From Amoebophrya sp. A120 (lineage: Eukaryota > Protista > Dinoflagellata): 64,000 nt of DNA. The stretch spans positions 2,265,923-2,329,922 of the forward strand of contig CAJINV010000014.1 in assembly GCA_905178155.1 (NCBI GenBank), given 5' to 3'. A program made the translations under genes and the position numbers. Below the pieces are notes generated by a model. That model searched no databases. It had not been told where the DNA came from and was given only the letters and a program-made list of their open reading frames with translations. The number at the start of each line of letters is the position of its first letter. Position 1 is the stretch's first letter. Shown piece after piece: positions 3,374 through 56,906 of the stretch.

Positions 3374-6300
3374 TCACACCTTCTGTTCCCGCAGCATCTT
3401 CAGCAATTCCTCCTCGATCTCCTTCACATTCTTATTTTCCTGCCCCACATTCTCCGCCTCGAGTTTGGCCACCGTCTTCTTGAAATCAGTGTCCGCCCGC
3501 TTTTGCCGGAAATCTGCCACCTCTTTCGCCACCTCGACGTCCCCGCCTCTCGATAGCTTGTCTGCTTCGATTTTTGCCGACGTGGTGCTGGTGCCATTCA
3601 CATCATCAGCTGCTACAACACCTTTACCGGTCGATTTCTTAAAGAAATCGTCTGCCCCCCGTAAAGCTGAGTACTTTTTGTACAGCGATAGGTAAAATTG
3701 CTCACTCTTCGCATTCTGCTCCATCGCGTCTGTTGTTGAAAACGAACCCGTAGTAGTTGCACCACCCCCTTGTGGTCGAGCCCCACTTTGACCACGCCCA
3801 CCACGGTCATCATCTGCCAAAGAACTAATTTCCGAGGGGTCTCCGGATAAAAACTTCCCGAGCCGCTCCTTTTTTCCGCCGAAGCAGTGGTTCAAAAGAA
3901 ATTGCTGTCGCAAATACTCAGCCGTAATTTTTCTACGCGGGAAGGCCTGGCCCCTGTGTGGAGATGAAGAGGCAGTGGCGGCGTGGTGTAGTTTCACCTG
4001 TCCTTGTTTTCCTGATCCCCCTTCGAATTGTTCACCTTTTATTCCCACAATCTCCCTCGGATCCCGGAAGCTTTCGGGTAGAATCAAAGCGGACGGGCCG
4101 TCTTTCTATCAACAGAAAAAAACCCTAACCCATCCACATCCATTTTTTGCATGACAAACACAGGATTTGATCTGATGTATGTTAATGCTTTGCATGACAA
4201 ATTGGATGCGGATGGGTGTTTTTTCCTGGATACTTTCGCCTGCAACCCAATTGCAGTCAGCCGCTTCCGAAACCGACGGCTGATATGGATTGCAAAAGTG
4301 TCTTGGTCTGGAAGAATGCAGGAGTTTTTGATGCAGATTTTGCGTGACCCATGAGGTCGGTGATGCATGCCCTAGCATCAGAGATTTTGCGAGGGCTTTC
4401 TGATGCTCATACTGCGTGAGAAATGCCCTCTCCGCGTAGCACAAATTGCACCTCTTTTGCTGTTCATGCAATACAGTTTTTATGTGGATTCCAAAAGTAG
4501 CATCACAAGTTGTATCCTTCCAGACCCAGACATTTTTACATTTGATAGCTGAGGGTCTCAAACGACTCGGACTGTTCGACCAGCAGTTTGTGCTCTTGGT
4601 TCAACCTCGCCTGGTTGTAGAGCTGCAGCACGTCCTTCTTGTAGTCGTACGAGGGCCTCGTGTCCGAGTCCGGGTTGGACCTGTGGTCATAGAGCGGCTC
4701 GGCGAAGACGGCGTTCATAATGTTAGATCGGAAGAGCGAGGAGATACTGCGGCTACTTGTTGTGCTGGATAATTGAGACGTAGACGCAGGCCGCGCGTCA
4801 GGTTTTGATCGGTCTGGAGCAGGGGGTGCGTCAACCTCCAGTTGCAGTGCTTGCTCAATGATGTCTTCATCTTCGTCGTCTAGATTTCGAGTGGGCGCAT
4901 CATCGCTTTCGTCTTCAACGTCAAGAAAGCCAGCGCCGGCTGTTTTGCGAGGTGGTAAGAAATTCCTGATTGGGCTGCTCCTGCTCTTCCGCGTCTCCAA
5001 TTCAAATTTTTCCATCCTGCCACTCATTCCGATTGCCCGCTTCAGCGATCCACCTAATTGTCGCTGCATTTTGGTCAGCCCGGTCAAGGAGCCAAGACCG
5101 TGGAGGGAGGTATTCGAGGTCGGGAATGTCGTAACGTTGTTGTAGATGTTGTTATTGAAAAACAGCGCGCTCTTCTGCAGGCTCTTCCGTGTACCGAAAA
5201 CGTTGTTACCCAGGGAGAGCAAATCGATATTGCTAGTGGCGCCTATCAGCTTCGGATCGGTAAGAGCGGCCAAGCGCTGCTCCAACATTTTTGCGTGGAC
5301 GGAGGCGGGGCCTATAACATCATGCGTCGTAGTTGATCTCGACGCTGTCGCGGTTTTCTTCTGCGGCTGCGCTCCCTCTGGACTGCTGGTCGCGTGTTCC
5401 CCCTCTCGGTTAAAGGTAAAGCTTTGGAGGTTTTTGTGATGTTGAAACAACGGCGATCGCTGCGGAAGCTCGTGATCACCACGTCGAAATTTCTTGGAAA
5501 CCGCACACTTCTTCTTGCTCCTTCTACTTGTTTCTGTGTCATCTTCGTCAATGACAGCACGACCACCTGTTGCATGTGCACTCGCCAAACTTTTTTGCAC
5601 GGCCAACAACAGCAATAGCCCGTGGTCCTCTGGTGCAACTCGGTTCGCGGCCCAGGGAAACAAGAAGTCGGCGAGCTGCGAATAGTCAGTGGCCCTCCGC
5701 CGGTGCGAGTCGTGCGCCTCGCCTCCGGCAGGGGAAGCGCCAGAAGAACTTCCTCCCCCGCGCCCTGTTGTCGCCTCCTTGTCCTCTTTCGGTTGATCTC
5801 TGTCTTCCAAACCCCTAAACACCGCCTCGACTCGTAGCAACCCTTGGTCTCGGGAAAGCAGCTTTAAGACGAACAGCATCGCGGCACAGACGGCCTCTTT
5901 CTCGCTTTCTGAAATCGGCTGCCCTGGCGCGTGTGCGTTCTTCTTCTCTCCGTCGTGTCCGCCTTTTACAGTCGCAGGGCTTCTAGTAGATGGCGCATGA
6001 AGCCGCGATCCAAGCTGCTTGCTAGCCTCCTCCTTTACCTCAAGAAATCGCAAGTCGAATACATCATCGAGAACATCACCAGCTGCGGCTGGAGGATCTT
6101 CTTGGTCGAGAGCCCCATCGCTCGATTTCAAGAAGATCCCGGGTGCTTGCAAGAACAGATCTCCGAGCGGGTAGGAGGTATGGCGACGCAGAGTGAAGGA
6201 GTCTGAGCCGGTAGTTTTTTCAAACCCGATTTTCTTCGTGGGAGATGCCGGAATTGAGGCCGGGTAGGGGTACTTGTTCTCGCCTTTGTTGCCGCTCGGT

Positions 6301-9300: not shown

Positions 9301-12300
9301 GAAATTGCCTCGACGTCCTCGTCCAAATCCCGACCCACGCGGCCGTTTGGAGGAAGTGCCACGACTTTCCATTCCAAAGACCCGGTCTCGGTGTTGAAGA
9401 TCTTCCGCGCCAATAATTTTCCGTCTTTGTCGTACCAACTGACCGCGTTTCCATCAGCGTCCACATCAATTTCTTCCACTACTTTCGCGGCCGCGGATAG
9501 GAGCTCTTGATGCGTATAACTTTGGCGCCGATTTTTCGTGTTATTTTGACCACCGGGCGGGGAAAATTCGCTTCCGCGCTGCTTCGACGCCCTCGTTCCG
9601 CTTTTCCGCTTCTTATTTCGTCTTGGCGAGTTCGGGTGGGGTTTCCTGTAGTCGTATTTTCGTCCTCCGACTCCGAGTCCCCTTCTGTTGCTTCTGCGAG
9701 TTTTATTTGTCGCCGTTTTCTCAACCTGATCTTCATCTCCACCTTCAAGAACAGTCTCATCGCCGCCGTCTTTTCTCCCACATTCAGCTCCATTTGTGGC
9801 CGCAGAGCTTTTTGATGACTTTCCCGAGGACGACGAGGAAGAGGAAATCAGCATCTCGACCGGTTCGGTTTGCGCGTTCGCAAAATCGTGCATCAGCTCC
9901 CAGTATGCAATACAAAAGTATCGCACTCCTGGTGACGCTTTGCTTTTTCTTGCTAGGTGAAAGTGATAGTGAACGACACATGATACAATTTGCCATGCGA
10001 ATGCAGCTCAAAATAGAGAAATCTCTTATGCAGAAGTATTGCAATCAGTACGAGGAGTTGTGCGAGTGCGACATCATTTTCGCATAGGATACCCAGAGTG
10101 GCTTCTGGTTCAACTTCGCCACAAACTCCGCTTCATCTTCGCAGGAGCTGGAGGAGAGGTCAAGGTCAACACGAAGATCGTCTGTTTTTCTCGTGGTTCT
10201 TGTTCTAGCCCTTTTCCTTTTCTGTCCTTTGTCCGCAGTGTCGTTGTCAGCCGTGCTCCCTTTGCTGATCCGCACTTCTCCCGCTTGCGAATTACTCGCA
10301 GCAGCAAGACTCGCGCGGCCTGGGTCGTCTTGCGAAGGTTTTGCTCCACGCTCGGCAGCTAATCCAGTTTTGTTTTTGCCGGTGTCATCACGCTGCAGCT
10401 CAGCAGCATCGTCCTTCCCCCTATCCAGCTGTTTGAGCGCGTGACCCAAGCGAAACTCAATCGCGTTCATGGCCTCCTTTACTGTCGGGAATTGCTGCTC
10501 GTCTCTCGCGCGCGAGGAACGGTCATCGGGAGAAGAGACTAGCTGCAGATCTTGATCTAGATGATCTTCATCGTTTCTTCCAACTTCACGATCATCAGTT
10601 TGACCAGCAGAGTGGTCCTTTCGCATCCAAAACGGCGGCTCACGGTCCGACGGCTCCTCTTCCACGACGCACTCGCTTTTCTCGCCCTTCTGGTCGTCAA
10701 GCTGATAGACTTCTTCTTGTACTAGCCGAGGTCGGCTTTGCCCCTCTACCAGCCTTTGCCCCCGAACAGCCGACTTGCCACTTGTTGTTCGTGTTCCTGT
10801 CACTTCCAAATCCAGATGCAGTTCTTCCCCCGAAGACGTTGCTGAGCTGCTATCGTAGACCTCGTCCAGAGGTTGGTGGTGATCCTGGTGCTGGTTCACG
10901 ATGTCTGGGTGAAGTTTCTCCCCCTTCGAAGAGCGGCCCAAGACGAGACTGTGCGTGAAGGCCTCCAACGTAGACGGATTACTCGTGGGCGGGACTTTTT
11001 CATTTTCTCGCTTCGTAGTTTGACCATCCTTTACCGTTTCACTTTCTTCTAATATCAGCGCCGGTTGATGAGTATTTCGCTCTCGCTGATGTAGATGCTG
11101 TCCCACTTCAAAGTCAACGTCGTCGCTGCTAGAGGTCTCTGCTTGCGCGATCGGGCTGGTTCTTTTCGGAAACTGACCAAGGCCAGAGCCGGCGACAGGG
11201 GCGGGCGCTGTTTTGCCATCCTGTACCTGTTCCCCAGAAACGTCTGCTCTCTCCGGGAAGAAAAGCAGACTTAGAGAACTTGGAGGGCGGCGTGCAGCAG
11301 GACCTGCAGCCTTACCTGCTACATCACAGCTTCTTGCGAAGTCGAAGAAGTTCCTGTCCTTGTTGAACACAGCAGGTCCCTTCGCCCTACACTTGGTAGT
11401 ACTTTCCTCCAGCTTCCTGCGCCAGCTCCAGCTGTGCACCTTCGCGGCCGCGTCTACGGGAATCGCTGGTGGGACCGAAAGTTCTTCTGTGCCCATAGAA
11501 ATTCCGGTCCGCGTCCTCGGCTGCATTTGCCGACGTCCCTCTCGTCGTGCCGCTGCCTTTTCATCTTCGTGTGCTCTCTGCGCTTGCTGTGTTCCTTGCG
11601 CTTGGGCTTGCTTTCTCCACGAACCAAATCCGCTCGAGATAGTCTTTATTTTCGTTTTTGCTGTTGACGTCAGTCGGCTCTGGAAAAAACCTGCCTGCTG
11701 CAAGTTGCTCGAGCAGGATTTTTGGAAGTCATCTTGTTGCTCGTCCCTCTTCACTTGCAGGTCCACTGGCGAGGACCTGTGCGTTCCCTCCTTCAACGTT
11801 TTCGGCCCGGCGGGGGCGTTGGCTTTAGTAGATGTCGCCCCTCCAGCAGAGACGACCACTTTCGCCTTCGCCACAGAAACTCCGCCCGCCGTTGATTTCG
11901 CAGACAGCTTCGCTTGCACAGGTGCAGCTGCTCCCGGCGCAGCAGTAGACACTCCTAGAGAAACGCTCGCTTTCGGAGCAAACACTCCACCCCCGGCCGT
12001 GGATCTCGCAGATGGCAACTTCGATGCACCAGCTGCCCCGGAAACTCCCGAAGCACCCGACCGAGCGCTACTTGCGCCACTTCTCCCTGTGCCTAATCCG
12101 CTGGAAAACAAACTGGTCACTTTAAGCCCGATCTTCGGCACAATCGATGACGACTTCGCGCCGGCCTTTTTTCCGGAAGTTCCCTTCGACGGTTGTTTTC
12201 CCTTTGCGGATGTGTTTTTTCCAGAGAAAACACTTTTTGCTTTCGTCGGCGGTTTTGCTGCAGCTGCAAACTGGTTCGCAGGTCCTCTGGCGGGTGGTGG

Positions 12301-25888: not shown

Positions 25889-26049
25889 TATCAAGCAAAA
25901 AAGTGTTAACGTTAACGGTTTTGAGGCATTGCTGTCATGCATGAGAAATTGCCGCTATCATGCATGCTATGCAATACAAATTTGGGCATCATTTCTCGTG
26001 CATTTCTGCATGCCAAATTCCGTTAACGTTAACACTTTTTGGTGTGATA
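25889..26049. mobile_element. Introner-like element (161 bp), host gene unresolved
   Basis: TIR TATCAAGCAAAAAAGTGTTAACGTTAACGG / CCGTTAACGTTAACACTTTTTGGTGTGATA, perfect TSD GTTGC. Confidence 0.88.
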
Positions 26050-26106: not shown

Positions 26107-26427
26107 TATCAAAGTGAAAAAAGCCCCCACCTCATATCGGAAACGGAAGATGCACGAATTTGTGATGCTGCATTTGAGTACACAAATCAACTTGTATTGC
26201 TAGAAGGCCAAGAGGCGAAGCTTCGGCCTAAATTGCAGGTAATCCGTCATGCTGTTTCCCACTTCCAGTTGCCTCCTGTCATCCTGGAGCTGCAAGGCTT
26301 TCCCACGCTAGACAGCACTACAGTCCGCATCTTTTGCCTTCTAGCATCACAAAGCTGATCTGTGACCACGAATCTGCATCACAGATTTCCGTTTTGATAT
26401 GGGGAGGGGGCATTTTTGATTGTAATA
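26107..26427. mobile_element. Introner-like element (321 bp), host gene unresolved
   Basis: About 40-bp imperfect TIR (TATCAAAGTGAAAAAAGCCCCCACCTCATATC vs TATTACAATCAAAAATGCCCCCTCCCCATATC), perfect TSD CTCGT, internal TTTGTGATGC and GCATCACAAA. Confidence 0.85.
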
Positions 26428-33574: not shown

Positions 33575-36500
33575 CTACAGGTCTGGATTTGACGACTCCA
33601 TCAGGCCACTTGGCACGCTGCCCAGCATTGCATCACCTAGAATAAACTGCTGGTCCCCGAGGTTGTTGGAGTTGGTCGTGTCTGCTTCGCCCAATTTGTT
33701 GCGATACTGCGCCAACAGATCCGCGAACGAGGCCGACAAGCGATTCATCTCGATGGAAGAAGAGGTAGAAGAGGCAGATGATTCCGATCCACCTGCTGCC
33801 CCATTTCTGCTCGCACCGCTCGAAATAGATGTAGTTGCTCTACCGGGGGAAGAAGAGCTGCCAGCAGCCAAGCTGTTTCTCATTTCTTCCAGGTTTACAA
33901 AAGCGCTAGACGCTTCCTGCAGGGCCGTTTCCATCAGTAGCAACCGGCTGGAGTTGGAGGCGGTAGTGCTATTTGCCGTGGCCGTGCTCACCGCGGCCAG
34001 GGTGGGCGACAGGCCCTGCTGCAACGCACTGAAGGTAGAATTCAGCCCGGCTAGGGAAAGCAAGGAAGTACTTGCCACCGCGGTGGGGCTGCTCTGGGCA
34101 AATTCGGCGGACGTGGGCTCGTAATCCAGGGCCAACTGCGTCGCGGTTTTGGAATGAATGGGAAGATTTTTTGTTTTCTACACATTTATATTTTTTGATG
34201 AAAGACATAGTTAGACATCATCTGGAGAGACAAGCACGTAGGTAGACAAAAATCGATTTTCAAAAAAACGAACCTGCTCCGGCTGCGGCATCTCGAAGAC
34301 GAGCTTCTGTGCCCCGACTTCCTGCAGAGTGTAGAGCCATTTGAGCAGTAGCGTTTGCTTGGAATTGTTGTACTGCATGGTGTCTGCACCCGTCACAAAC
34401 GCATCTCCGAGCTGCTCCGTATCATACTGAATCAGAATCGCCTGGGCCACCTTCTGCAGCAGTGTCATCTCGGCATTGCGCAACGCTGCATGAAGCAGCC
34501 GATCGCGCTCGACCTAACGATCATTTGTCATTATACGTGATTCTTGTCATGTAGTGGTCAGTAGCCAACCCAATGATCATGCGATGTCGCCATAAATGCA
34601 AGTGAGTATCAATCTTGTTCGGTACTATCGCAATTTCATTCAACACAGTCACAGTCAGCTGTAGCTGTACTCAAGAATAAACACGACAGCAATTTATTTC
34701 CTTTATTTTTACCTTCGCCACTTCCACCTTCGTCAGAGCGTCTATTTCAGCCGTTTTGCGTATGCATGCGAAATTCTGACTATCACTTTTTCGCGACCGG
34801 CCTTCAAACTTCTAGAGCGACTGGTACAACTTTGATCATGCAGCAGATGCTCGATCGTGATGGATACTTTTCAACGACGAGTATGAGGCAGACGCAAACT
34901 ACCTTGCTCATGCATCGTGACATCAAAGAACTACTACATCGGGACGTCGAAACCTTGCAGGAGTGTAGAATATGGATGCTGTACGCCAGTCTACATACTG
35001 GTGCTCCTGTCCCTGTCGAATTTATTGGATTGCAAAGATCTCATGCGCATGCCAACTACGAGGAAGAACATCTCGACAGATAAAGAATTTCCGCATGGAT
35101 ATCTTTGGCGAAAATCGCGGCTTCTTTGGCCTGTCGTGCCAGTTCCGTGTCTTGGATGGCCGATTCCAGGCCCGTGGGCAGCTGCACCGCGACCAGCGAC
35201 ACCCGGTGCGTGGTGCAGTTCAGCGGCAGCAGAGAGGTCGTCACGCGCTGCTGCATCAACTGGCCGATGATCTCCCGTTTGGTGTAAAATTCCAACGCGT
35301 TGTGCTGGGACACCTCCGTGCGAATGGCCGCGGCAATGGACGCCTGCACCAGCCCCCGCCAGTTCTCGTCCCCGGTAGTTTCGAACAACCCAAACAGGGT
35401 CTCCTTCAGCTTATGGCGTTCTCAGCTGTTACACTCTCAACTGTTAAGTACATGGATTTGTGATGCTAAAACAACTGCAAGAATGGGAAACGTGAAAGGG
35501 AGGAGATTGCGCCTGTAGCATTACAAATTCCGCACAGATTTAGGCGCTGTTTGGCCCTAGGCAGATTTGTCGTGCGAAGCAGCTTGATCGCGTGGATGAT
35601 GTTGGTGCTTTTGCATGACAAATTCATGTAACAGTTGAGAATGTAACGTTTGAGAACCCCATACAGCTGGTCGCTCACTTGCGGAGCGTCGGACTTGTCG
35701 CCCAACGTGTTGTCGCGGCCGAGCCCCAGGGAGATGCCGGCAGCCGCTTCCACCTGGATGATCAAACCCTCGTACGACCGGCAGGGAAGGGTTTGCGCCT
35801 TGACCACAAAGTTTTTGCCCACCAAATCCGCGTCTTCGGCGGGCATTTGGCCCGCCAGACAGGGCGTGCAATCCTCGGCGCCGGTTTCGCACTCGTCTGC
35901 AAGGTCGCAATCTTCTTCCTCGGTGCCGCCTAGAACGTGTGGGAGGGAAAGCGAACGTGTTGGAGTTGCCAATCAATGCAGCAGCAAGAAAGGCCTCTGA
36001 AGAAGGCATTTTTCGCGCTTCATTACACTACAACTTTTGAACCTTACCTTTCGTAGAAAAAGCGCGGTGCTTGCCCACTTATCAAGATTATTACCTCCGT
36101 ATTCATTTTGGATGAAATAAAGCACAACACTTCCGCTTCCACTTCGATACAGGCCTGCTCTCGTCCATGAAGCTGAAAATCCTCGTATCAAACCAAAAAT
36201 GTGGCAACGACATTTTTTTGTCGTGGTCGTGGTTTCAGTATCACGACGAGGATATCGTCCACTGCTATAATTCTGCATGAGATGAAGCTGGTGCATCATG
36301 TCGTTCACGGCTAGCACCACAAATTCATCTGCAAAAAATGCCACCAGATTTTTGGCTGATACATTCGATTCGCGGGAAACTTCTTCCATTCGTGGCCGAG
36401 ACCTGTGATGAGGTGTAAACATAAAATGTGTTTGGCGCCATTTGTGTGGAATTTGCCATCGCCGATATAGCCAGCAAAAAGCATTTTCCCATTGGTGCAA

Positions 36501-36705
36501 TTATTCTTCTACCGAGAAAGTGTCTCCCTCCCTGCGCGACGCTGTCTTTGTAGATCTGCCTCGAATTCAGGTTGTACTCGATCCCCAGTTCTAGAGGTTC
36601 CAACACCGCAAAGGAGCAAGCGAACAGAATGATCGCAATGTTGAGCAAGCAGCAAAACCCGCCCGTCTTGATGGCGAAGAAGCACATCTCATCGTCGTCC
36701 ACCAT
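33575..36705 (-). CDS. SPFH / Band-7 domain membrane protein, about 8 exons
   Basis: N-terminal TM segment, then LEPLELGIEYN...GGRHFLG|LGHEWKKFPANRM|IFSF...CRSYEGLIIQVE...AIRTEVSQHNALEFYTKREIIG...VQLPTGLESAIQDTE and a coiled coil. GT-AG introns at 36403-36512, 34514-34712, 34136-34273. Introner introns at 36186, 35412, 34761. One uncertain junction near 35933-36149. Confidence 0.85.
34761..35101. mobile_element. Introner-like element / non-canonical intron (341 bp) with decayed TSD
   Basis: TIR TATGCATGCGAAATTCT vs TATCCATGCGGAAATTCT. Flanks on the coding strand are AAAGA and CGCAA, with only the last base shared. Removing element plus 5 nt gives IFAKE|TAEIDALTKVEVAK. Confidence 0.78.
35412..35663. 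mobile_element. Introner-like element / non-canonical intron (252 bp)
   Basis: About 35-bp TIR (TATGGCGTTCTCAGCTGTTACACTCTCAACTGTTA vs TATGGGGTTCTCAAACGTTACATTCTCAACTGTTA), perfect TSD CAGCT. Junction SDQL|KETLFGLF. Confidence 0.92.
35938..36149. mobile_element. Candidate degenerate introner intron (212 bp)
   Basis: Ends match 18/25 ungapped as an inverted repeat, with one terminus TGT instead of TAT and no TSD. Removing element plus 5 nt restores the SPFH frame. Confidence 0.45.
36186..36361. mobile_element. Introner-like element (176 bp) with canonical GT-AG boundaries
   Basis: TIR TATCAAACCAAAAATGTGG vs TATCAGCCAAAAATCTGG. Coding-strand flanks GAATG and CGAGG. Intron 36362-36182 reads GTATC...CGAG and restores FPANRM|IFSF. 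Confidence 0.85.
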
Positions 36706-37681
36706 GTTGGGCGGTTTTTGTGGAGCTGCTGGGCCTCCTCAAACCAACTCAAAGTCCTCGTGCTGATTGTACGAGAGTGCAAGAGTACGAGGTCCTGCTC
36801 GTGCTCGGAAGATTTCGCGGCTGTGAATGTCCTCCTGTCTTTATCCTTACACGTTATCGTTGATACGCGGCAAGAACCCGGACGAGTAGTGTGTGTGTGT
36901 GAGAAGGAAAGCGGCTCTGGATTAAAAAAATCCGACGGTTCTTGACGAAGCAGACCAACACCAACTATGGTGGGCAACAAGGTGCAACATAGACAAGTTG
37001 TAGTTGCATCGCAGTTGTGCACGATGCTGCGCGAAACAACGGAGAAGTATCTTGTTTGGTCTGCAGACTCACTCTTTCCCCTAGAAATTTTCCTGGCCTA
37101 GTTGTATCTCGAAGTAAGATGGTCGTGCTTCTTGTTTCGTACAAAAAGAGTTTTAGTTCGTTGAAAACAGCGTGAGGCTACAGCATAAAAGAAACCCAGC
37201 GCCGAATGGTTAATACAGAAACGGATGCTAGCGACGATGAATGAGGTGCTTCTACAACTTTTGTCTCTTATACCGTATTAATAGGTTGCCGAAGGTGCTG
37301 CGTCTGGGCCGCGCATGCTGTTTTCATTGCTAAACCTCCTGCCTATGTTTTTTTAGGCGAACAACGCAGAGCGAACTGGCAACTTCTGGTGCTGGTGACA
37401 AGTTGTGGAAACAGCGGACACTACCACCCAGACACAGAGACAGACTGACTGCATAGTCCAAAGCGATTCATTTTCATCTCATGAAATTAAATGCGAAACG
37501 GAAACGGTTGGAAGTTTGTCAATCATACAGATGCCTACGTGTCATCATCATCAACACGAATATTCATCGCAACAACGAACTCTTCCCACGAGCCGCTGCC
37601 GACATTGCGTTCATGAATGTGAGTTATAATTTTGTCAATGCCGGCTCCTACGTGCTACCAGTTACATTCACATCATCTGCC

Positions 37682-39485
37682 TCACCCCGCCGGCGTCGCG
37701 GTGGCCGCACTTGGTGCTTCGGGCATGATGTACTCCATGAGCCACTTTGGCGGAAAAGACTCGTACACCAGTCGCAAGAACCTCGTCAGCGTACCCGGGC
37801 CTGAATCGGGGAGCAACGGTTTCACGGGGTTTTCCAGCACAGGGTTGAGCCAGGTCGTTTTCTCACATAACGTCTCCGGGATCACGCTGAAAGATGTTCA
37901 CGTACACTTCTAAGGATGACAAACAGACTTTGAAGACAGACTTTGCCCTTCTCATGCATGGTCATGTTCATGCGCCATCATAACTGAACGATGAAGAAGA
38001 AGAACAAGCGAGGAAAAGTAAAAGCAGTGATGCGAATGTTTTACCCTCCCGACGCCTCTTCCACGTTTTCCAGCACGTAAGTCTTGGCTTCCTCCTCCGT
38101 CATCCCCCGCGACGCCACCAGACTGTCAATCGCGGCCTGCAGTTCCGGCTTGATTTCCTTCTTGTCGGTCCCGCTGACGCCGTTCAGCTGCTTGATAGTC
38201 ACCTCTATGGATGTGTCAGGATCGAAATCAACAAAATCGAAATAATTTGTGATGCATAAGATCGATACCAGTTGGAGCCTCAGTTTCCAAGTGGTGCATG
38301 ACAAATTTCGGGAGCACCAAAGTCCAGCCTGTCATGCTGTTTCGGCAAAGAAGACTGCTCCTGTCATGCTTCTCTGGAAGCGCATCGTCTTCCCTAAACA
38401 GGCTGGCAATCGGTCTCATTTGCCTGCTCCCCAATACAGGCCATATGTGCCCTACATTTTATGCATTACAAATTTTTCGACTCTGTCGATTTCGATCCTG
38501 ACACATCCATAACCTCCGCGTGGGAAATAAACTCCCCGTAGTCGTTCCCCACCGGCTGACAGGAATTCGCGCAGAACTCGTTTTATCAAATGTAAAAGTG
38601 TCTGGGTCTGAAAGATTGCGAGATTTGTCATGCTTGTCTAGGATGACCAAAAAGTTTGTGATGCGTGTCCAAGAAGAGACCCTTTTGCCTGTCATGCAAA
38701 AACGCAGTTTGTCATGCGAAAAACGCAACACAAAGAAGCGCAGATATTTCTCATGCTTGGCTGTGCATTACAGAGCATTTACAATTCCCAACGCAGCATT
38801 ACAAGTTTTCAGACCCAGACATTTTTACATTTGATACGTTTAACGTGATCTGCTTGGAAATGGGGAAGTTGATCCCCACCTGCAAGGCCAACGCCGGCTC
38901 GATGGTGCAGTACGGCCGTAGCGGGTCGGACACCTGGCAGCTCAGCGACTCCGCTTTGAACCGACACTCCATGCGCGTCTCGCCGTCAAAGGTCGGAATC
39001 GACTCACCGCGACAGCAATCGGCGCAGCGACAAAAGGGAAAAGAATTCAAGTCAACCGTTTCCATCAGGAAGGTTTTTGCCGCGACGTTTTGGATTGGTC
39101 GTGTGAGGAGTAATGGACTTAGAGAGGCGAGAAAACTACAAAAGGAGTAGGAGTAGCTTGATCGTGGATGTACAGCTCTTGTTTTCTGGTAGTTTTTATC
39201 CTGATGCTGATCTGATCGTCTCGCAAGACCCTGGGTTTTGCTCCGCACTCCTCGGACGTCTCCATTTTTGTGAAGCGTCGACTTCAGCAGGCGCCGATCG
39301 AAGCCGAAACTGCAAGAGGCACTGCAGGTCGCCGAGACATGCCGACGTGTTCTTCGCAACGCGCCTGCAGCTAGTACGCGTCCTCGTCTACTAATCGAGG
39401 TGCCTGCACATGTCGACGGCGAGCTCTTGGAGGACAACATGGTAACTATTGTTTTTGATGTTCGCTCAGTCCCTATCATGGTCAT
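37682..39485 (-). CDS. Cys-rich (CxCxxCC...FCxxxC) protein, probably secreted or membrane-targeted; 4 exons
   Basis: Reconstruction ...CRCADCC...QITLN|EFCANSCQPVG...HAEV|TIKQLNG...EASGG|VIPETLC. Two introners (38584, 38206) and a GT-AG intron at 37887-38044. Start and extreme 3' end uncertain. Confidence 0.75.
38206..38511. mobile_element. Introner-like element (306 bp), family C
   Basis: Perfect 24-bp TIR TATGGATGTGTCAGGATCGAAATC, perfect TSD ACCTC. Homologous to the reverse complement of 54510-54817. Confidence 0.93.
38584..38836. mobile_element. Introner-like element / non-canonical intron (253 bp), family B
   Basis: TIR TATCAAATGTAAAA(G/A)TGTCTGGGTCTGAAA, perfect TSD CGTTT. Homologous to the reverse complement of 52715-52962. 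Confidence 0.93.
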
Positions 39486-40078
39486 TTAGAAGGCCGTGGA
39501 TTCCGTGCAACAGCAAATTGGTTTGTCAAAGAAGCAGAATCTGATTCCTTTCCGGAACACGGAAAAGGAAACGACCCGCTAGAGCAAGTACCACAACATG
39601 CAACTAGAACTATCGCCATTTTGTGCCTGCCCATGAGTGGCAGAGTAGATGGTGCCAGAAACGTGTTCATTTCTCACTTAAATTCATGTGCTCTCGTCAC
39701 CTCGTCCTGCTCGTTCCTCTTCTTTACTTACTCTGTACTAGCATTCTTCTTTCTTACATCACTGCAGCCACGTTGCGCTGGCAATGGTAGCTCAAGAAAA
39801 CACATCATTCAACAGGTTCATTCTATATAGAGAAAGTGGTAGAGACAGTGGACAAGACCAGTGCTGCTCTGTTCGCTTTTCAATCTGCTCCTGCAACTAC
39901 AGCACGATACACAGCTTATTTCGTTCATCCGTGCGCACTGGCGCTACATCGTCCATGGAAAAGAAAACGCTTCTTTCTCCACCTTCTTTAAAAGGACACT
40001 TACATTACCAAGGTGCTTGGACTAGCACCCGTGCCCGCCTCAACATCTCCGTGAACTCGAAGTCTATTTCATCACGTC

Positions 40079-41202
40079 TCAACGCCGAAACCCAAACGCT
40101 TCCGCCGCGTACGTCACAGCATCGTTGTAGTCCGGTGCTTTCAGTCCCGTGTGCTGCAGTTCGTTAACCTCTTGCGCGTCCTCATTGTTGATGCACGTGG
40201 CCTGCGGGGTGGCTCCGCCGTTGCCGGGAGAAACTAAGAATGGAGGAAACGAGGTTATCATTTGAACATCAAAAGCTATGCACGTCACACGAACGCATCT
40301 TCGAATATGAGCAACATGAAGAGTTCATCAGTTTCTAGAAGACGAAAAGCAAGCTGAAGAAGCTTCTTGAACAAGCTAATCGAGCCGATGCTAGCAAAAA
40401 TCTTCGCTCGCAACGATTTCTAAGCATATACCACTGCCTCCCTCGATGTAGGCATTGTTCAACCGCGTCCGCTATCCTGAGTAAAAACGTCCCCACGCCA
40501 GAGTTGTAATGCAGATTTCGAAAGACAGGAAGACTTGTAATGCGCATACCCATGAGAGCCATTTCTACTCGTGTTTTGGAACTTGTGATGCTGTGAACAG
40601 GATGAGCAGATGAATCTGTGATGCGGCTGCACTTGCTAACCTGCACTACAGCACAGCAGAGCGCAACTTGTCATGCGTGACTCACAAAACTCCTAGGTTT
40701 GTGTTGCAAAATCCCCATCCTGACTCTGGCGTGGGTACGTTTTTACTCAGGATATCCGCTGCGCGTTCGACGTTCCGCCAGCGGCCGGCACGCTGCAGTA
40801 GCTGGCGCAGTACTGGTCGTAGTCCGTGGCCGTTGTGGTCGCCCAGGACCCCGCGCTCACTTCGGTGCAAGTGGCCTGTTGGCACTGACCGGTCGGCTCC
40901 CCGTCTTCGTTGTTCGCCTGGTCTAAAGTGGTCAAATTGATCCGGCGACAAGTCAACTTCCGGTGCACTTCGGTCACGATGCAGCACCCGCAACTGCACC
41001 CATCCTGCGCGATGTCGTAGATCTCATTGGCAAAAATGTTCCTCGTCTTCTGCAGTTTCTTCTGCGCTCTACTTGCCGCGCGGTGTAGGGAGAGGTGCTG
41101 CTGCAAATTGACAGCGGTCACAGCTACCGGGAAATGAGCAGCGAGGTGGGAAGATACCAGATGAACCAGAACCATCCGCCAGATGAGGCGAAAAGGAGAC
41201 AT
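40079..41202 (-). CDS. Secreted Cys-rich protein (CSCGCC...YCASYC), 3 exons
   Basis: Signal-peptide-like MSPFRLIWRMVLVHLVSSHLAAHFPVAVTA. Introner at 40473-40754 and GT-AG intron at 40234-40431. Junctions NAQR|TRLNNAYIEGGS|VSPGNGG are in frame. Confidence 0.78.
40473..40754. mobile_element. Introner-like element / non-canonical intron (282 bp)
   Basis: Near-perfect 32-bp TIR TATCCTGAGTAAAAACGT(C/A)CCCACGCCAGAGT, perfect TSD TCCGC, several internal TTGTNATGC. Confidence 0.93.
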
Positions 41203-42277
41203 GTTTCCCTCGCGACGGCGAAACCTTCCACCACCACAGGAGGTGGTGGAGAAGCGGAGACTATGTTCCTTCCACCTCCACCATAGATGGCGAGAGCGGT
41301 TCTGAGAACGCAATTACTTCATTTTTGTACACAAGGAGCACGACAACGTCAAGGACACGGACACGGCGAGAGTTCTAGAATTCGACAAGGACGACGGAGT
41401 AAGTACTTATTTGTGGAGGTGGTCTCGAACTCCAACACCAGCGAGCTCCAACAGAATGCAGAAGAAATCACTGACTCTCACTCGCTCTTCCAGGAAAGAA
41501 AGTGTAGTTGCTATGCCAATGCCCTCTCCCTCGAAGACCTATTGTCGCAACAGCGAAGCAAGGCAAGAGCAAGAACGCCGGGACGACAAACATAAAGACC
41601 CGAATTCATGAAGATTTAAAACAGCATGTCATGGTGCAGGAAGATTTAAACAGCATGTTGGTGTACGTAGTCAACGCTGCACCAGTGCCGCTGGCAAAAC
41701 AAAAATCTTGCTTTTCATCAAGATTTCTTCTTGGGTGTCTGTTGACTGCGCGATCGAATCCTTTTTACTTACTTCCAATCTCTTCTCTTCCACCGCCTCT
41801 TCTCCCTGGGGTAAGCGGACTATCGGAGCAAACAAATTCAAATTCCAGTACACAGGAATGCAGCACATGTGCCAGAATCGCAGCGCTCCGATTAAAAATC
41901 GTGTCCGAATTTTCCGTCAGATCCCATTTTTGTACAGTTCCTTTTTGTTCTTCCCGATCTAAATCATTGCTGTCACATATTCTACACTGGCGTGGAGACG
42001 CATCTTTTTGCTCTTTCATCGACCTCTTGTACTTCACACAATCGAATCACATATACTTTTTCCATAAATTCGTACGTCACACCATGGTCTCGGTCTGGCT
42101 CAAAAATCATACACGACAGGGACAGACTTTCAGGTTTCATACTGGATCTTACTTCGCAGAAATTTTCTGCAGATAACTGTAAGCAAGGGGACGCGACAAT
42201 GGTTTTGTACCCCGGCTAGCGGTCCCGGTCGCAGTGGATGAATTATCCCTTGAACTGGATGAATCCCAATCCATTGG

Positions 42278-45200: not shown

Positions 45201-47156
45201 GCTTCCCGAAGTGCATCAACTGTAGAAGAATTCTCGGTCAAAGAAGACGATGCCGCGCGACCACCTGGCCCTGGTGCCTCTTCTCCAGAAATAGCTCCAA
45301 CTACAGGAAGAGCTGCAGAAGACGAAGCGGAAGCAGACGGCAGCGGCCCATTGTTATCGGTGGAGGCTCGTGCAGGAACAAGGCCAGCTCCAGTTATAGA
45401 AGGAGAAATGGTGATCGCCGACAGTGATCATCTACCAAAGAAAAATCGCAGCACACCCTCGCGGAACGGGTTTGTTTTTTAACGGACCGAAAAAATGGCG
45501 CAGCTTTTCGCAGAGTGTGGCAGTGTTCACTGCGCACATTATGCGAGCAGTGCTGGAGATGGGAAAGGCCGACAATGGCCGGACGCTTCGGGGGCCCCAG
45601 GTGCTTAGTTTTCATGGTTGCTGGGCGCATGAAACCACTCTTCCCGTCTGGCCACGAGCGCCCACGCGTTTTGGTCGTCGAGCGCTCTTACCTCGGCCGG
45701 GGCGCGGCGCTTGAAGAGGGTCGGGGCCATAGCGTAGAGCCGGTTCGTTTGGACTGCCATCCCCCGCCTGGTTCGGGCCCGGCTCTGTGCCTCGACCTTG
45801 CCCGCCTGCCGCGAATGCGTCAAGGCATCGACGGGCCGGGGGCCCGGTTCACGCACTTAAATCCGATGACGGCTGGCTTTTGCGTGCCGCCAAGGGCAGC
45901 AAATACACGGAGCCGGCGGAGAAGCGGCTCCGATACGTAAGTACTAGCAACAAGCAACGGAGGCCATGCCGTCGGTTCTTAATTTGCACCGACGGCACGA
46001 CGCAGTTTGGTGAAGGGAAAGAACGCGGCGCGACTTTCGCGCCCCGGCTTCAACATGAAGACGGCGAGGCACCTTGCTGCACGGCCGCGGCAGCTCCTGC
46101 GGCGAGTCTCTCATAGTCGGCGCAGGCACGGACCGCGATAAACACTCGCTATGCCATCACGCAGGGCCCCGGCCTAGCGCCTGCCAAGAGAGAACAAAAG
46201 CAGCGCCGCCAAATATATATAAACTTCGCCCGGCGACGAAGCGCATGCCCCGCCCGGCGCAGCCGCGGAGCCGGCTCACCTGAGAAGGGCGCAGAACTCC
46301 CAAAGCAGCCACAGCGCTGCACCGCCTCGAGCCTGGCTGCCAGTTCCTGCACCGGCCTCGGGCCCCGAACTGTGAGCGGCTGCCCCACTTGTAATTTGCA
46401 GGCCCAGCCTGGAGCCAGGGCTTCCGGGCCTTCAAGGAACTGGCGCAGAGCATACTATAGCAAGGCGTTGCTTCTTCATCTTCTTCGACAACGTGCTGCA
46501 TTTCTCGCAAAGAAACGCGTTGTCGGAAATGAGTGTCGGAAGACGACAGAAAAACACTGATCTAAATGAGAGTCGAATCACTGATCATGAAGCAAAAAGA
46601 CCCTAGTTGAATGGTGATCATCAAATCAAAAAAATCGTTTGATGATCACCATTACCACGAGCTAACAAAGGTGATCATCAAATCAAAAAAGTCGTTTGAT
46701 ATTGGTGGAGGCTCGTGCAGGAGCAAGGCCAGCTCCAGTGCTAGTGCTCGCCCAGGTTGTACTTCTCCGACCTCCTGTGCCCGCGCCGGATCGCAAATCA
46801 AAATCGGTTTCCGCTGCAGGTGGAGACGCGTCCTGCAGTGCTAGTGAATGCGCGGCACTTCCACTGGCAACATCAGGTCGAAACGGTGAAGATGACCCGA
46901 GCGCGGAAGCACGTCTTGCACCACCAGTAGATGACTGCCCAGGAGTTCCGAACAGACTCTGGAAAGTAATTTTTGGCGAGGTTCTCGAGCTTGGAGCTGC
47001 GTTCCGTTCGTTTCCTCGGTCTGCGGCTAGGACGAACAGTCCAAGCGGGGCGCTGTGCTCGTCTGTCACGCCAAAGCTTGCAAAAATGCTGCAAATCTGA
47101 CGGACACACAACACAACCCACACGCAAGATCCAAATCTTACACGCGAGAAAACCAT
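42278..47156 (-). CDS. Large uncharacterised protein (~1180-1190 aa) interrupted by a 1.3-kb insertion
   Basis: The 987-aa ORF has no ATG before an upstream stop but stays open past 45394. ORF 47156-46683 ends in the same peptide (TGAGLxPARAST). Removing the insert joins them in frame. Confidence 0.7.
45395..46701. mobile_element. 1307-bp GC-rich insertion flanked by a 38-bp direct repeat
   Basis: 45357-45394 and 46702-46739 match at 36/38. The insert starts TAT and ends ATA but lacks a proper TIR. It has a subterminal 16-bp hairpin at 46610-46653 and a duplicated 31-mer at 46613 and 46670. Confidence 0.75.
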
Positions 47157-47540
47157 TCTGATTTCTTTTTTTGCGAACTATGTAGATATTATGATGTGCC
47201 TGATTTATTCGATCAGAAACCTTTCATTCGGTGTCGTTTCACTTTCACCAGGCTGCGGAAAAAAAAAGCCTGTCTTCACAAACATTAACTTAGTACACTT
47301 GCAATTCTACTACAACTACATCGCTCAAGGATAATAATCACAATACGAATACCCTTCAAAAGTACCCGCGATTTTTTTTTGTACACTCTACTTCTTGAAA
47401 CAGTTGGCAATATAATAATCGTAGTAATATTTGAAGCTGGAGATGCATTTGGATCGGGATCGGGAATGAAATTGAAAAGAAAAAGCGGATCGTAGAAAAA
47501 ATAAAATAATTAACTACTTCAAAGTAAAACACAAAAACTA

Positions 47541-51842: not shown

Positions 51843-54800
51843 TCACGCCCCCATCACCAGCTGCGCTTTCGGGAAGATCCTCTCCACAAATCCCGCGTCC
51901 GCCTTCGACAGTTTCGAGTTTTTTTCGTCGTTGGACTTCAGCAACTTCTTCTGCAACTCCGCGTCACCGCTGGCCGCTGACAGCACCTGCGCGCAAAACC
52001 TGGCGACGTTGGACACCGAGTAGCAAATCGCGTTCGAGGAGCCAGGCGGGTTGGTCAGGCACGTGTGGTTAATGAGACCGTCCGGGGGGCAGGAGACTAC
52101 CGGGAACTTCGAGTGGAACGAAGCGGTTCCCGACAACGCGTCCGTACCTCCAGCGCAACCAACAATGATACAGGGCTGCTCCGAACGATTGTAGCTGAGA
52201 GAGGTTTTATTGCAGATGTTAAATGCTATCATGGAGTTCAACTTCATCTTGTAAAATAAAAATTGTATAGGCGAAATGCGTAGTGTCTACGTACATACTC
52301 TAGAACTAGAAAATTCAAACACGCAACACAACAAAACGAAGCACGGACTGAGTGAATAACATGAACATTTTCAGAAGGTGGAGCAGCTGCCGCTGCATAG
52401 AAGGCATTCATACATACTCATACTACCTTTTCAAAGCATCTTCCAACTTGCCCGGCTGTTTGTGCGCCGAGCAAATCCGGGTGTGCACCGCCTTGAGGCC
52501 CTGCTTCTTGCAGCTCTCCTCGATTTTCGCCAAATGGGGCGCGTCGGAATCCGATCCCGCCATGATCAGCACGACGCCGGTGCTCAACAGCTTCGCCGCC
52601 TGGAGGTTCTTGATGACCCGCTTGGCCGACGCGTTGCTGCTGCCGGTGATACTGGATGCGAACAAATCAAAGGGGAACTCCTTCCCAATGATCGTTTCGT
52701 AGACCTTGATGTACTATCAAATGCAAATATGTCTGACTTGTGATGCAAGTCAGTGAACAATAAGTGAACTGTCATGCGCAGCCAAGCATGACAAGTTTTT
52801 TCGTGCTTCTGTGATGCGCATTCCGCATGAGAAAGTGCGTTTTTGCATGACAGGCGAGAGAGGCTGTTCGTGGCCAGCACGCAATACAGAGTGCAGAGTC
52901 ATGCCAGACTAGCATGACAAAACCTTGCAATCTTCCAGACCCAGACATATCTGCAGTTGATATGTACCGGTAGCTGCACTCCACGATCTGGGCCGGGGAC
53001 AAACTGATTTCTATGACAGTGCACAACTCCCCCTCCCCGTCATTTGTCATGCAAAATACCAAATCCAGACTGTGTTTCTTAGCACTGTTTGCATGACAAA
53101 CTCCGGAAGCCCAAACAGCACTACACTCCTGTGGAAATAATTTGTCATGGAAAACCGGCATTCTTACTGACCCTTGTATTGCTTTTGCTGTTCATGCTAT
53201 ACAAATGAGGGGAAGGAGGAGTTGTGCACTGTCATAATTTCGTCCGCGGATTCATTCCCCGTGAACCCCATGTCGAGCAGGCAGTCGCGCACGTACTGTT
53301 TGCTGTATTCTTTGATTTTGTACTTGCTGAAAATCTCACTCGCCGGCATGGTCTTTCCCTTCACCGCTTCGTCGATCAATTTCCATTTCTTCTCGTACTC
53401 TTCAATGCCGCATATGCAACGGAAATTTCAATTTATTCATTCCGTGCACGTACTAATGCTATTTCATCCGCAACATGGCACCACTTTTATCTTTTTCGTA
53501 TGCAGCATACGAAAAAGATAAAAGTGGCATCGCATGCTTTAGGTTCGGAAAATTTGCATCTGCCGTGCATTTGTACGTGTGGGGTGAAATAAAATTGAAA
53601 TTTCTATTGCATACCGCACATCCGAGAGCTATCCGGCGTGTTCACTTCGTCAATCACATACAATTCGTTTGTCTCGTAGTCCAAACCGAATTCGTACTTC
53701 GTGTCGATCAGAATCAGCCCCTTTTCTTTCATCTTCTCGGATCTATCCTGTGCAAAAGTATCGTACTCGTACTAATTGCCATTATGCATGACAAATCTTG
53801 TCCTTAAGGTAAAACAGCATGACAAATTCCAGCTCTCACGCTGAGCAAATTTGTAATGCAATTTATACTAGTACGATACTTTTGCAACGCATAGGATCCG
53901 CGCTGGAACAATTTCATCGAGATGTCCTTCACTTTTGCGGCCAAATCCACTCCGATCAATTGTTCCACCTCGGCCATGGTCATGTTCTCGTCGTGCCCCA
54001 CCTCCGCCTTCGTGGTCGGCGTGAAGATCGGCTCGGCGAGTTTCTGGTAGCGGACCAGCCCGTCTGGAATCTTCAACCCGCAGAAGTCCCGATCCCCCTT
54101 CTCGTACGCCTTCGCCATGGAACCCCAGAGATAGCCGCGGACGATGCACTCCACCATCAGATTCTTCATTTTCTTCTGCACGACGACCGCCGGGTCGGGG
54201 GCGGGGGTGATGAGCGCGTTGGGGATGATGTCCTTGGTCGCGTCGAACGCCCATTCGGAGATCTTGTTCAACACGAACCCCTTAAAGGGGATCAAATTGG
54301 GCAGCACGTGGTCGATATCCTGTGCAAAAGTATCGTACTAGTATAAATTGCATGACAAATTCTGGCAAGAAGGAAAGTCAAATTTGTAATGCTGTTTTGC
54401 CCTAGGAAAAATATTTGTCATGCATATCTGCAATTAGTACGAGTACGATACTTTTGCACAGGATAGTCGAACGCAGAAACCCGGTCGTTGGTCACCATCA
54501 CCACGCTCTTATGGGGGTGTCAGGATTGAAATCGTCAAAAAATGGTTTGTCATGCACAAAATGCAATACAAAAAGTGACTCTATTGCAGAGGACGCACGG
54601 GAGGCAGATTATAGTCCTGGTAAGGGTCTTTCAAAAGTTGGACGGCTGACTAGCATGACAGAAGGTAGCTCTTTTGCCCTAAACTGCGTGACAGACTCGC
54701 TTCCAGGACCGGGAAAATTTGCCATGCACCGACTACAAACTGTGGGTCTAACTGGTATCCGTTTGATGCATGGCAAATCATTTCAACTTTGACGATTTCA

Positions 54801-56906
54801 AACCTGACACGTCCATAGTTCTCGTTCTGGAAGTAGATGTCCCGCACCTTTCCCTTCTTCGCCTCGCCCCACTCCGGGATAAACACCGCGTCCACTTCCG
54901 TTTTGTTCAGAAATTCGCTGTGGATCTTTTGCTTGTAGAGGGTTTCTTTATCCTTGATAGTACCATCGCCGTCTTTGTCGCTCGTCGTTTCCTTCGAGGT
55001 CGCGGCGGTGGAGGTGAAAAAATCGTTGTCCACCGCTTTCGTGCACGACACAGAGGGTTTCACATCCGAAACAGCAGTACTGCCCGTGGCGAACACCGGA
55101 CACAGGCGCGCATCCGCGTCTTCCAAGGACTTCACCTTTTTCGCGTTTTCGCTGCTCAAAAACTCCCCGATCTTCGGCTCCTTGCCGGAGAACATCTGCA
55201 GGCAAAACCGCGCGCAGTTTCCCGGCTTGCCGCAGAAGGCGTTGCTGCTGCCCGGCGGGTTGATCGTGCAGGTTTTGTTTTCCAGCCCGTCCGGGGGACA
55301 GGACACCACCGGCCAGATGGACAGGAAGGACGCGGTTCCGGACAAGGCGTCGGTACCGCCGGCACAGGCGATGATGCAGATCATCTGGTCGGTATCCAGG
55401 AAAAAACACCCATCGCCATCCCCATCCATGTTTTGCATGACAAACACTGGAGCTGATGCATGTTTTGCATGACAAATTGGATGGGGACGATGTGTTTCTG
55501 TTTTTTTTTTTTTGTGGATAGTCGGAGGTATTGTAGTACTTCAACACCTCGCCGAGCTTCTTCGGCTGCTTGTGCGCGGAACAAATCCGCACCTGCGTGG
55601 AGATGTTGTGCTTCGCGAACGATTTCGCGAACTCCTTCTGCAGTTTCTCGATGTGCGGCGCGTCCGAGTCGGACCCGGCAAAGATGCAGGCGAGGCCAGA
55701 CGAGAGGTACTTTTTCGCGACCAAATTCTGCAACAGCCGCTCCTTGGGCGACTTGTTGATCACCTGCGCCTTGTCCGGTAACGGGAACTTCTTGCCCGTG
55801 ATCTGCTCGCAGACGTCGATGTAGCGCTTCGCGCACTCCAGCACCTGCTCCGGCGTCAATTCGATCGCCTTGGTGGCGGTGGTAGGGTCGAATCCCATTT
55901 CCAACAGCGTGTCCCGGACGTACTGCTTCGAGAACTCCTTCACCTTCAACTTCGGATGTTCCTTCAGCAAGGCGGACACAGAGGGGTAGTCCTTGATCTT
56001 CGGTTCGATCAGCTTCCACTTCTCCTCGTACTCCGCAATGCTGCACAGACGGCTGCTGTCCGGCGTGTTCACTTCGTCGATCACGTGCAGCTTGCCGGTC
56101 TTGGGGCAAATCCCAAACTCGTACTTCGTGTCGATCAAAATCAGCCCCTGCTTCGCCATCGTCTCCTGGCCGCGCTTGAACAGCTTCATCGAGATGTCTT
56201 TGACCTGATGTAGTTTTTGCGCCATGTACTTCTAACAGCGACTTCTTGTTGATGCAGTTGTAGGTAGGACCACGTAGTCAGAGCCGACTTGTTATTTCTT
56301 TTTCGAAATTCCTAAACTCCTGCTTTATCATTTTACATCGTAGGATGACAAAATCTTGAGCATCGTGTGCTCCGTAGTTCCTACCTGCGCCGCCAAATCC
56401 TTCCCGATCAGCTCCTCCACTTCCGCCATGGTCATGTTCTCGTCGTGCCCCACCTCCGCCTTCGTGGTCGGCGTGAAGATCGGCTCGGCTAATTTCTGAT
56501 ACCGCACCAGCCCGTCCGGGATTTTCAACCCGCAGAAGTCCCGATCCCCCTTCTCGTACGCAGCCGCCATGGAACCCCAGAGATAGCCACGGACGATGCA
56601 CTCCACCATCAGATTTTTCATCTTCTTCTGCACGACGACCGCCGGGTCGGGCGAGGGGAGAACGAGGGCGTTGGGGATGATGTCCTTGGTCACCTCGAAC
56701 ATGTGCTCGGAAATGGTGTTCAGCACCTGGCCCTTGAACGGGATCAGATTCGGAAGGACAAAATCGAACGCGGACACACGGTCGTTGGTAACCATGACAA
56801 CGTCATCCTCCTGGAAATAAATGTCGCGGACCTTGCCTTTCTTCGGAAAACCCCACTCTGGCAACACCACGGCGTCGAGGCCGTAGTTTAGGAAAGACGC
56901 ATCCAT
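51843..56906 (-). CDS. PAICS: Tandemly duplicated SAICAR synthetase / AIR carboxylase fusion (PurC-PurE-PurC-PurE, ~1068 aa), 10 exons
   Basis: PurC motifs [66 protein letters not shown] and PurE motifs GSDSD, SAHK, PVVSCPP each occur twice. Exons approx. 56906-56385, 56204-55521, 55387-54818, 54504-54466, 54310-53894, 53738-53614, 53407-53237, 53006-52963, 52709-52427, 52194-51843 sum to 3207 nt. Two GT-AG introns (56205-56384, 52195-52426) and seven introners. Confidence 0.95.
52715..52962. mobile_element. Introner-like element / non-canonical intron (248 bp), family B
   Basis: TIR TATCAA(A/C)TGCA(A/G)ATATGTCTG, perfect TSD TGTAC. Junction CSYRY|IKVYET. Confidence 0.93.
53012..53236. mobile_element. 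Introner-like element / non-canonical intron (225 bp)
   Basis: TIR TATGACAGTGCACAACTCC with further similarity inwards, perfect TSD ATTTC. Junction SADEI|SLSPAQ. Confidence 0.93.
53413..53613. mobile_element. Introner-like element / non-canonical intron (201 bp)
   Basis: TIR TATGCAA(CG/TA)GAAATTTCAATTT, perfect TSD CCGCA. Junction DSSRMCG|IEEYE. Confidence 0.93.
53744..53893. mobile_element. Introner-like element / non-canonical intron (150 bp), family D
   Basis: TIR core TGCAAAAGTATCGTACT, perfect TSD GGATC. Junction FQRGS|[10 protein letters not shown]. Reverse-complement homolog of 54316-54465. Confidence 0.94.
54316..54465. mobile_element. Introner-like element / non-canonical intron (150 bp), family D
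   Basis: Perfect 24-bp TIR TATCCTGTGCAAAAGTATCGTACT, perfect TSD GTCGA. Junction VSAFD|HVLPNLIPF. Confidence 0.95.
54510..54817. mobile_element. Introner-like element / non-canonical intron (308 bp), family C
   Basis: About 30-bp TIR TATGG(GG/AC)GTGTCAGG(A/T)TTGAAATCGTCAAA, TSD GCTCT/GTTCT (4/5). Junction YFQNEN|VVMVTNDR. Confidence 0.92.
55393..55520. mobile_element. Introner-like element / non-canonical intron (128 bp), family A
   Basis: TATCCA...TGGATA ends, perfect TSD GTCGG. Junction YYNTSD|[11 protein letters not shown]. Confidence 0.93.

Follow-up and report, generated by a model that had tools for sequence, protein, structure and literature searches.

The window analyzed here is a 64,000-nucleotide stretch of the Amoebophrya sp. 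A120 genome. It contains 15 elements defined by TAT...ATA inverted ends (the weak ones at 4107 and 55393 were admitted by eye and later passed the duplication test), which together amount to 3.37 kb, or 5% of the window. Exact 5-bp duplications flank 14 of the 15, the fifteenth matches at 4 of 5 bases, and no other duplication length among the 2 to 9 bp tested fits these elements. A sixteenth, decayed element (9904..10091) sits at the break between two long minus-strand ORFs. The elements, to which no strand is assigned, and their sites for the interior motif described below are as follows.

38206..38511: TAT...ATA element, family 6, 306 bp, TIR about 37 bp
38247 (+), 38296 (-), 38330 (+), 38362 (+; 32 bp past 38330), 38463 (-): motif sites of 38206..38511
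38201..38205 (+) and 38512-38516: left and right copies of the 5-bp target-site duplication (TSD) ACCTC, flanking 38206..38511
38201-38511: skipped by putative RNA contigs (38206..38511 plus one duplication); one register reads GT-AG
38584..38836: TAT...ATA element, family 2, 253 bp, TIR about 30 bp
38625, 38656, 38690, 38709 (+): motif sites of 38584..38836, spacings 31, 33 and 20
near 38765 and at 38796 (-): motif sites of 38584..38836, spacing 31; two of the element's sites are weaker variants
38579..38583 (+) and 38837-38841: left and right copies of the 5-bp duplication CGTTT, flanking 38584..38836
38579-38836: skipped by putative RNA contigs (38584..38836 plus one duplication); no GT-AG register
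4107..4232: element, family 8, two strict sites
4284..4547: element, family 0, one strict site plus weaker variants
9904..10091: decayed element, end resembling family 1, duplication CCCAG, no strict site, one variant
25889..26049: element, family 11, one CTGTCATGC plus variants
26107..26427: element, family 3, 32-bp spacing in three same-strand pairs, each with or entirely of variants
35412..35663: element, family 9, three strict sites, no 31-33 pair; skipped in putative RNA contigs
40473..40754: element, family 5, pairs at 31, 33 and 31; skipped in putative RNA contigs
52715..52962: element, family 2, six TGTVATGC sites
53012..53236: element, family 7, two strict sites
53413..53613: singleton element, motif-free, inside the SAICAR-synthetase ORF, stops in all three frames
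53744..53893: element, family 1, three strict sites
54316..54465: element, family 1, same ORF as 53744 but in the opposite orientation
54510..54817: element, family 6, one strict site, duplication matching at 4 of 5 bases
55393..55520: element, family 8, its two sites, 32 bp apart, in the sense orientation of the mRNA
54818-55387 and 55521-55999: joined directly in a putative RNA contig that lacks 55393..55520

In all five cases covered by putative RNA contigs (four of four in 35000-41500, plus 55393), the element was skipped together with one duplication; the evidence consists of contigs only, from one sample, in four runs guessed to be RNA. A GT-AG boundary could be read in one of these five checked elements (38206) and in no register of the remaining four. 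Folded as RNA, 38579-38836 and 40468-40754 each give a long hairpin whose closing stem is formed by the TIRs (z about -6.9); the motif occupies no constant place in these two folds. Removal of the seven elements at 52715-55520, two of which belong to one family and lie in opposite orientations, leaves a single 787-codon frame with SAICAR-synthetase domains. Stops were present in all three minus-strand frames of six of seven tested elements. DNA contigs (21,740 over 20 kb) piled up on the elements, which reflects genome-wide repetition, and 14 of the 15 have relatives at 72 to 92% identity in a second assembly, JACKZZ01. Being 109 to 346 bp long, non-coding and multicopy, with TIRs and a 5-bp TSD, the elements have the properties of MITEs (non-autonomous TIR elements). 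Their TAT plus A run, border repeats, removal from transcripts and genome-wide repetition are those of A120-type introners, and the window elements match the published introners of this strain.

Three other features of the window were recorded. Positions 51800-57060 hold repeated SAICAR-synthetase units with an AIR-carboxylase-like part. A 1.3-kb multicopy insertion at 45351-46744 lies between 49-nt direct repeats (90% alike) and splits a minus-strand ORF region; its DNA depth is about six times that of the flanks, putative RNA contigs from other copies cover it, and its three internal ORFs gave no Pfam match. AT-rich non-coding DNA at 47538-47668 contains two near-perfect hairpins next to each other, one with 30-nt arms (97%) and one with 43-nt arms (86%); both have a loop of 1 nt.

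The word TTGTNATGC has 36 matches in the window, compared with 2.42 ± 1.55 expected from 100 dinucleotide shuffles (maximum, 7), a frequency above background. Thirty-three of the matches fall inside the 15 elements, giving densities of 9.8 per kb within elements and 0.05 per kb elsewhere; the sequence-only reading, which had judged the motif by eye to be scarce in exons and intergenic DNA, was right on this point. Because all three matches outside the elements read TTGTTATGC, with T at the N position, the motif was refined to YTGTVATGC, where V is not T. The form TTGTVATGC then occurs 33 times inside elements and 0 times outside, and [TC]TGTVATGC occurs 44 times inside and twice outside. This 9-letter word recurs many times in the short transposon-derived introns, often as pairs separated by three turns of the DNA. 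The 12 positions that the sequence-only reading had listed as examples are all element starts; 11 of these elements carry two or more copies by strict count (54510 has one), and eight carry both orientations. That description holds for the elements listed, with exceptions among those it left out: 53413-53613 lacks a site, and in 25889-26049 the motif occurs only as the CTGTCATGC variant. Its statement that the TIRs share little beyond TAT did not hold, since the ends also have C/G at position 4 and an A-tract at positions 11 to 15 (A, 0.64 to 0.85, in a logo of 143 elements in which the TAT ends are a search condition and not a result).

The proposed contrast with other introns was also found. 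The putative RNA contigs in 35000-41500 skip five other introns of minus-strand genes, and none of the five has a strict site; a single weaker match was present in two of the five, scored with a weight matrix that was trained on the same elements, so that matrix counts within elements are no independent test. One canonical GT-AG intron (37887-38044) has a motif variant with a matrix score of 12.7 and further weak look-alikes. An Rfam search returned 0 matches. UGCAUG, the RBFOX motif, and TGCATGCA, an apicomplexan AP2 motif, were rejected as identities of the word, since its conserved core tolerates GCATCACA and GCATTACA, both of which lack those motifs.

A metagenome scan for two sites 30 to 32 bp apart yielded at least 62 loci in a single assembly, JACKZZ01. 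Among the matches listed, an enclosing repeat was present in 51 of 62 from JACKZZ01 and in 1 of 71 from other metagenome records. Prokaryote genomes gave at least 121 scattered matches, with a loose enclosing repeat in one among the matches listed. The paired-motif scan of viral contigs gave 10 matches, none in an element; two end-pattern scans of viral contigs gave 0 and 1 match, and the single match was rejected as chance because it lies within another ORF. In 156 kb of JACKZZ01, 132 elements were called and 128 were kept (three long compound elements and one dubious call were left out). Together with the 15 window elements, they form 13 multicopy families and nine singletons. Because the loci had been chosen by spacing, the 54 copies bearing the search pattern were set apart from the 74 without it (unselected copies). 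Called elements in this assembly contain 383 sites in 33.6 kb (11.4 per kb) vs 0.5 per kb outside any element match, and the outside sites lie, by eye, mostly in decayed copies. In locus L050 (505-1608), a family-6-like element has a GC-rich, internally repetitive stretch of about 800 bp nested near one of its ends; in locus L081 (2090-3262), an ORF for a Copia-type reverse transcriptase is separated by 1.3 kb from two family-3 elements. In a separate run (X9; RNA, covering no gene of the stretch and therefore uninformative on splicing), 75 reads carry a family-0/2 end followed by the motif. They match window positions 38584-38617 and share a single unique context, a hint that another strain carries the same family.

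The motif is present in all 13 multicopy family consensuses. We compared the consensuses in pairs, keeping motif and spacing and shuffling the spacers. In 13 of the 78 pairs, homology of the interiors extended past the motif (z above 4), and these links connect all 13 families; 51 pairs have no such homology (z under 2). The sequence-only reading had called the families unrelated, which is not the case. Families 0, 1, 2, and 5 draw on the same few 10-nt end types, which occur at left and right ends alike, a pattern suggestive of recombination or conversion between copies. Within family 8, the two units are alike beyond the motif. The families look like one recombining superfamily; because they share ancestry, they are not independent replicates.

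In all 11 families with at least four copies, motif columns are conserved at 0.90 to 0.97 vs 0.74 to 0.85 for other interior columns, a level about equal to or above that of the TIRs. With the pattern-selected copies removed, the values are 0.90 to 0.97 vs 0.64 to 0.84 in nine of nine families. The V position varies freely among A, C, and G and rarely becomes T (13 of 150 changes vs 1,615 of 5,251 in other columns, counted as alignment cells, which are neither events nor independent). Since this position is as changeable as the background in most families, alignment anchoring is not the cause of the conservation. Across 110 copies in seven families, variants shared between copies have a rate of 0.036 in motif columns vs 0.192 elsewhere, a five-fold depletion, and private variants have a rate of 0.020 vs 0.043, a two-fold depletion. 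The private rate of 0.020 is near the mismatch rate of the duplications (0.028, a lower bound). The halving of private changes in motif columns leaves room for selection after insertion.

The positional and spacing analysis that had been suggested with the motif revealed same-strand pairing at 31 to 33 bp and 10.5-bp phasing of convergent sites. The family-weighted number of same-strand pairs at 31 to 33 bp was 13.0 vs 1.65 ± 1.1 in the 15 window elements and 11.7 vs 2.5 in the 74 unselected copies (0 of 500 random placements in each case); in 16 unselected copies from 10 families absent from the window, the excess was not significant (2.1 vs 1.2; 77 of 500). A pair at 30 to 33 bp is present in 11 of 15 window elements and in 46 of 74 unselected copies, and no 31-33 pair occurs in the consensuses of families 7 and 9. 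The spacers within 31-33 bp pairs are unlike between families. For a period of 10.5 bp fixed beforehand, convergent pairs were phased (P = 0.0007), and inward sites showed a period of 10 to 10.5 relative to the element end (P = 0.006), the first inward site lying about 35 to 38 or 44 to 48 bp from that end. Neither the remaining same-strand distances (P = 0.38) nor the outward sites (P = 0.86) showed significant phasing; the same was true of divergent pairs (P = 0.17), which also had no enrichment at 15 to 18 bp. Three helical turns are the main signal, and the phasing is partial, short of a full lattice.

These sequence patterns make YTGTVATGC a candidate double-stranded DNA binding site, rather likely one for a single shared and probably integrase-type transposase. 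The sequence-only reading had proposed such a common site, and the conservation, the 31-33 bp pairing, the partial phasing, and the presence in 13 of 13 families speak for it indirectly; its premise of unrelated families does not stand. The 5-bp duplication and the TA ends indicate the integrase-related DDE group. A single DDE transposase of this type, supplied in trans, would mobilize all families. Its subunits would bind pairs of sites on one helix face, starting about 36 to 38 or 44 to 48 bp inside each end, and may help to bring the two element ends together. Cutting at the TAT ends and 5-bp staggered insertion would then produce the duplication. Multiplication would be confined to copies whose arrays are intact, with decay of the sites setting in after insertion. 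The transcript would lose the element and one duplication, probably guided by the terminal hairpin, and for splicing, this hairpin and the duplication would matter and the motif would not. Among the points against a transposase site are the limited pairing and phasing and the common ancestry of the families described above. The sites also occupy the whole interior and not the ends alone; a Pfam scan of 90 ORFs contained no transposase or integrase; and, in the available text of Farhat et al. (PMC7789003, section 16), no transposase was reported in A120 and general mobilization by a transposase was rejected.

That absence of a reported transposase (PMC7789003) would suit a host protein, such as a transcription, chromatin, or DNA-bending factor, bound to the motif on DNA in place of the transposase itself; the elements might exploit this factor as a transposition cofactor or to escape silencing. 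We consider this unlikely. The geometry and conservation fit any protein that binds double-stranded DNA, host IHF sites in Tn7-like ends provide a precedent (PMC10201428), and rare pairs occur in apparent canonical introns. Against it, strict TTGTVATGC does not occur anywhere in the 60.6 kb of the window outside the elements, which includes intergenic stretches; sites of a host factor would be expected there.

It is quite unlikely that the motif marks the introns for removal, whether through an RNA element or through a mark on the DNA recognized in the course of transcription. Such a mark would offset the non-canonical ends (four of the five checked elements without a GT-AG register) and the reported lack of U1, which was not detected in Amoebophrya (PMC7789003, available text). 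Host strand could be assigned with confidence in 63 of 143 copies, in which 102 sites are sense and 85 antisense (P = 0.24), with 13 sense-only and 10 antisense-only copies; this lack of strand bias speaks against an RNA mark and is compatible with a mark at the DNA level. Elements with sites in a single orientation are skipped whichever strand carries them: in 40473..40754, every site lies on one strand, antisense to the mRNA, and 55393 has sense sites only. A strong site is absent in three of 143 copies, all singletons inside predicted reading frames, so motif-free elements interrupt reading frames (for 53413, removal is deduced from the frame). Site density per 100 bp is the same in confident coding contexts (1.75) and other contexts (1.82; P = 0.74), and sites are lost in decayed candidates (n = 23; 1.15 vs 1.79 per 100 bp; 0 to 3 false calls in shuffled windows). 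The absence of strand bias, the loss of sites in decayed copies, and the motif-free copies that interrupt frames are the pattern predicted by selection at transposition. Between the two functions that the sequence-only reading had offered, transposase binding therefore fits better than a splicing mark.

Motif pairs 32 bp apart also occur in apparent GT-AG introns without TIRs (L086, 5545-5650, a pair not among the pattern-selected cases; similar pairs in L107 and L014). These introns are possibly old elements that turned canonical. Together with the halved private changes, the pairs argue against selection at transposition only, and both observations favor a removal mark. One protein might do both jobs, mobilizing the elements and then staying bound to mark them for removal in either orientation, but we regard this as improbable. 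If true, the dual-role protein would stand in for the missing U1 as a DNA-encoded, transposase-derived signal for intron definition, with the pairs in GT-AG introns that lack TIRs as its domesticated version.

Very improbable is a motif that has no current function and owes its spread to common descent, to recombination between families, and to internal duplication of a unit of 31-33 bp: the interfamily homology, the common end types, and the similar units of family 8 show that descent explains part of the sharing, as the sequence-only reading had allowed, but not the selective retention, since descent alone gives no five-fold conservation over adjacent columns, leaves the T-avoiding position and the spacing kept between divergent spacers unaccounted for, and is at odds with the 51 family pairs lacking homology beyond the motif.

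The available text of the paper describing Amoebophrya-type introners treated the families as separate (PMC7789003). The shared motif, with its conservation and spacing, and the constant 5-bp duplication together would place one mobilizing system behind many families. The motif offers a pull-down bait and a signature for finding the autonomous element, and the number of sites, set against retention or copy number, is a measurable variable that separates transposition from splicing. Introner elements of A120 are already known. What appears undescribed is the uniformity of their 5-bp duplication, together with an interior motif that is common to the families, selected, and spaced. A literature search that covered few subscription papers revealed no published report of the motif or its spacing, and searches with the motif words returned unrelated papers only.

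The hAT transposons have an 8-bp TSD, and CACTA/EnSpm transposons have CACTA termini and a 2-3 bp TSD; in hAT and CACTA elements, subterminal repeats of a short motif lie in both orientations inside the TIRs. The likeness to these elements drawn by the sequence-only reading is one of analogy only. Membership in either group was rejected because of the 5-bp TSD and the TAT...ATA termini, and the window arrays, unlike subterminal repeats, span the whole interior with a fixed pair spacing. Tn7-like transposons have a 5-bp TSD. Their ends carry several TnsB sites each, with a spacing that follows the helical pitch (PMC10201428, available text). The window arrays are like them in having helically spaced multiple sites, a resemblance in working only: Tn7-like elements are bacterial and have TG..CA ends with the first site about 8 bp from the end, whereas in the window elements, which are introns, the first site lies 35 to 55 bp in.

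Among integrase-related DDE transposons, IS3EU/GingerRoot, Ginger2, and IS481EU show little target sequence preference in the descriptions available, which make no mention of phased interior arrays. IS3EU/GingerRoot has TA..TA ends, as in the window elements, but a 6-bp TSD vs 5 bp here. The TNT..AYA ends of IS481EU fit; its TSD is about 4, 15, or 25 bp, and that of the window elements is a fixed 5 bp (lengths 2 to 9 tested). Ginger2 fits by its 4-5 bp TSD in one available account (PMC10045372; 6 in PMC6839031) and differs by its TG..CA termini from the TA..TA of the window elements. No named superfamily passes all tests.

The closest known elements are from A120 itself. In the available dataset of Gozashti et al. 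2025 (PMC12130899), family 38 has a 5-bp TSD, TA/TA termini, and TIRs, all shared with the window elements, and is filed as Ginger with a Copia-like ORF; most other A120 rows read "TIR DNA, Unknown," and a hAT row also gives the 8-bp TSD. Family 38 is 808 bp long with Copia/Gypsy-like ORF remnants, whereas the window families are 109 to 346 bp and non-coding. The introners of Farhat et al. 2021 (PMC7789003) are described in its available text as non-canonical repeated introns of about 240 nt, many of them without relation to one another, with inverted repeats consisting of TAT, seven weakly conserved bases, and an A run and with short direct repeats of 3 to 5 nt at the exon borders. The article and supplement text make no mention of an interior motif, and the supplement figures, which are images, may include logos of the interior. 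The window elements have the same TAT/A-run ends, border repeats, and non-canonical repeated-intron character, and they differ from that description in a duplication of 5 bp throughout and in families that share an interior motif and segments.
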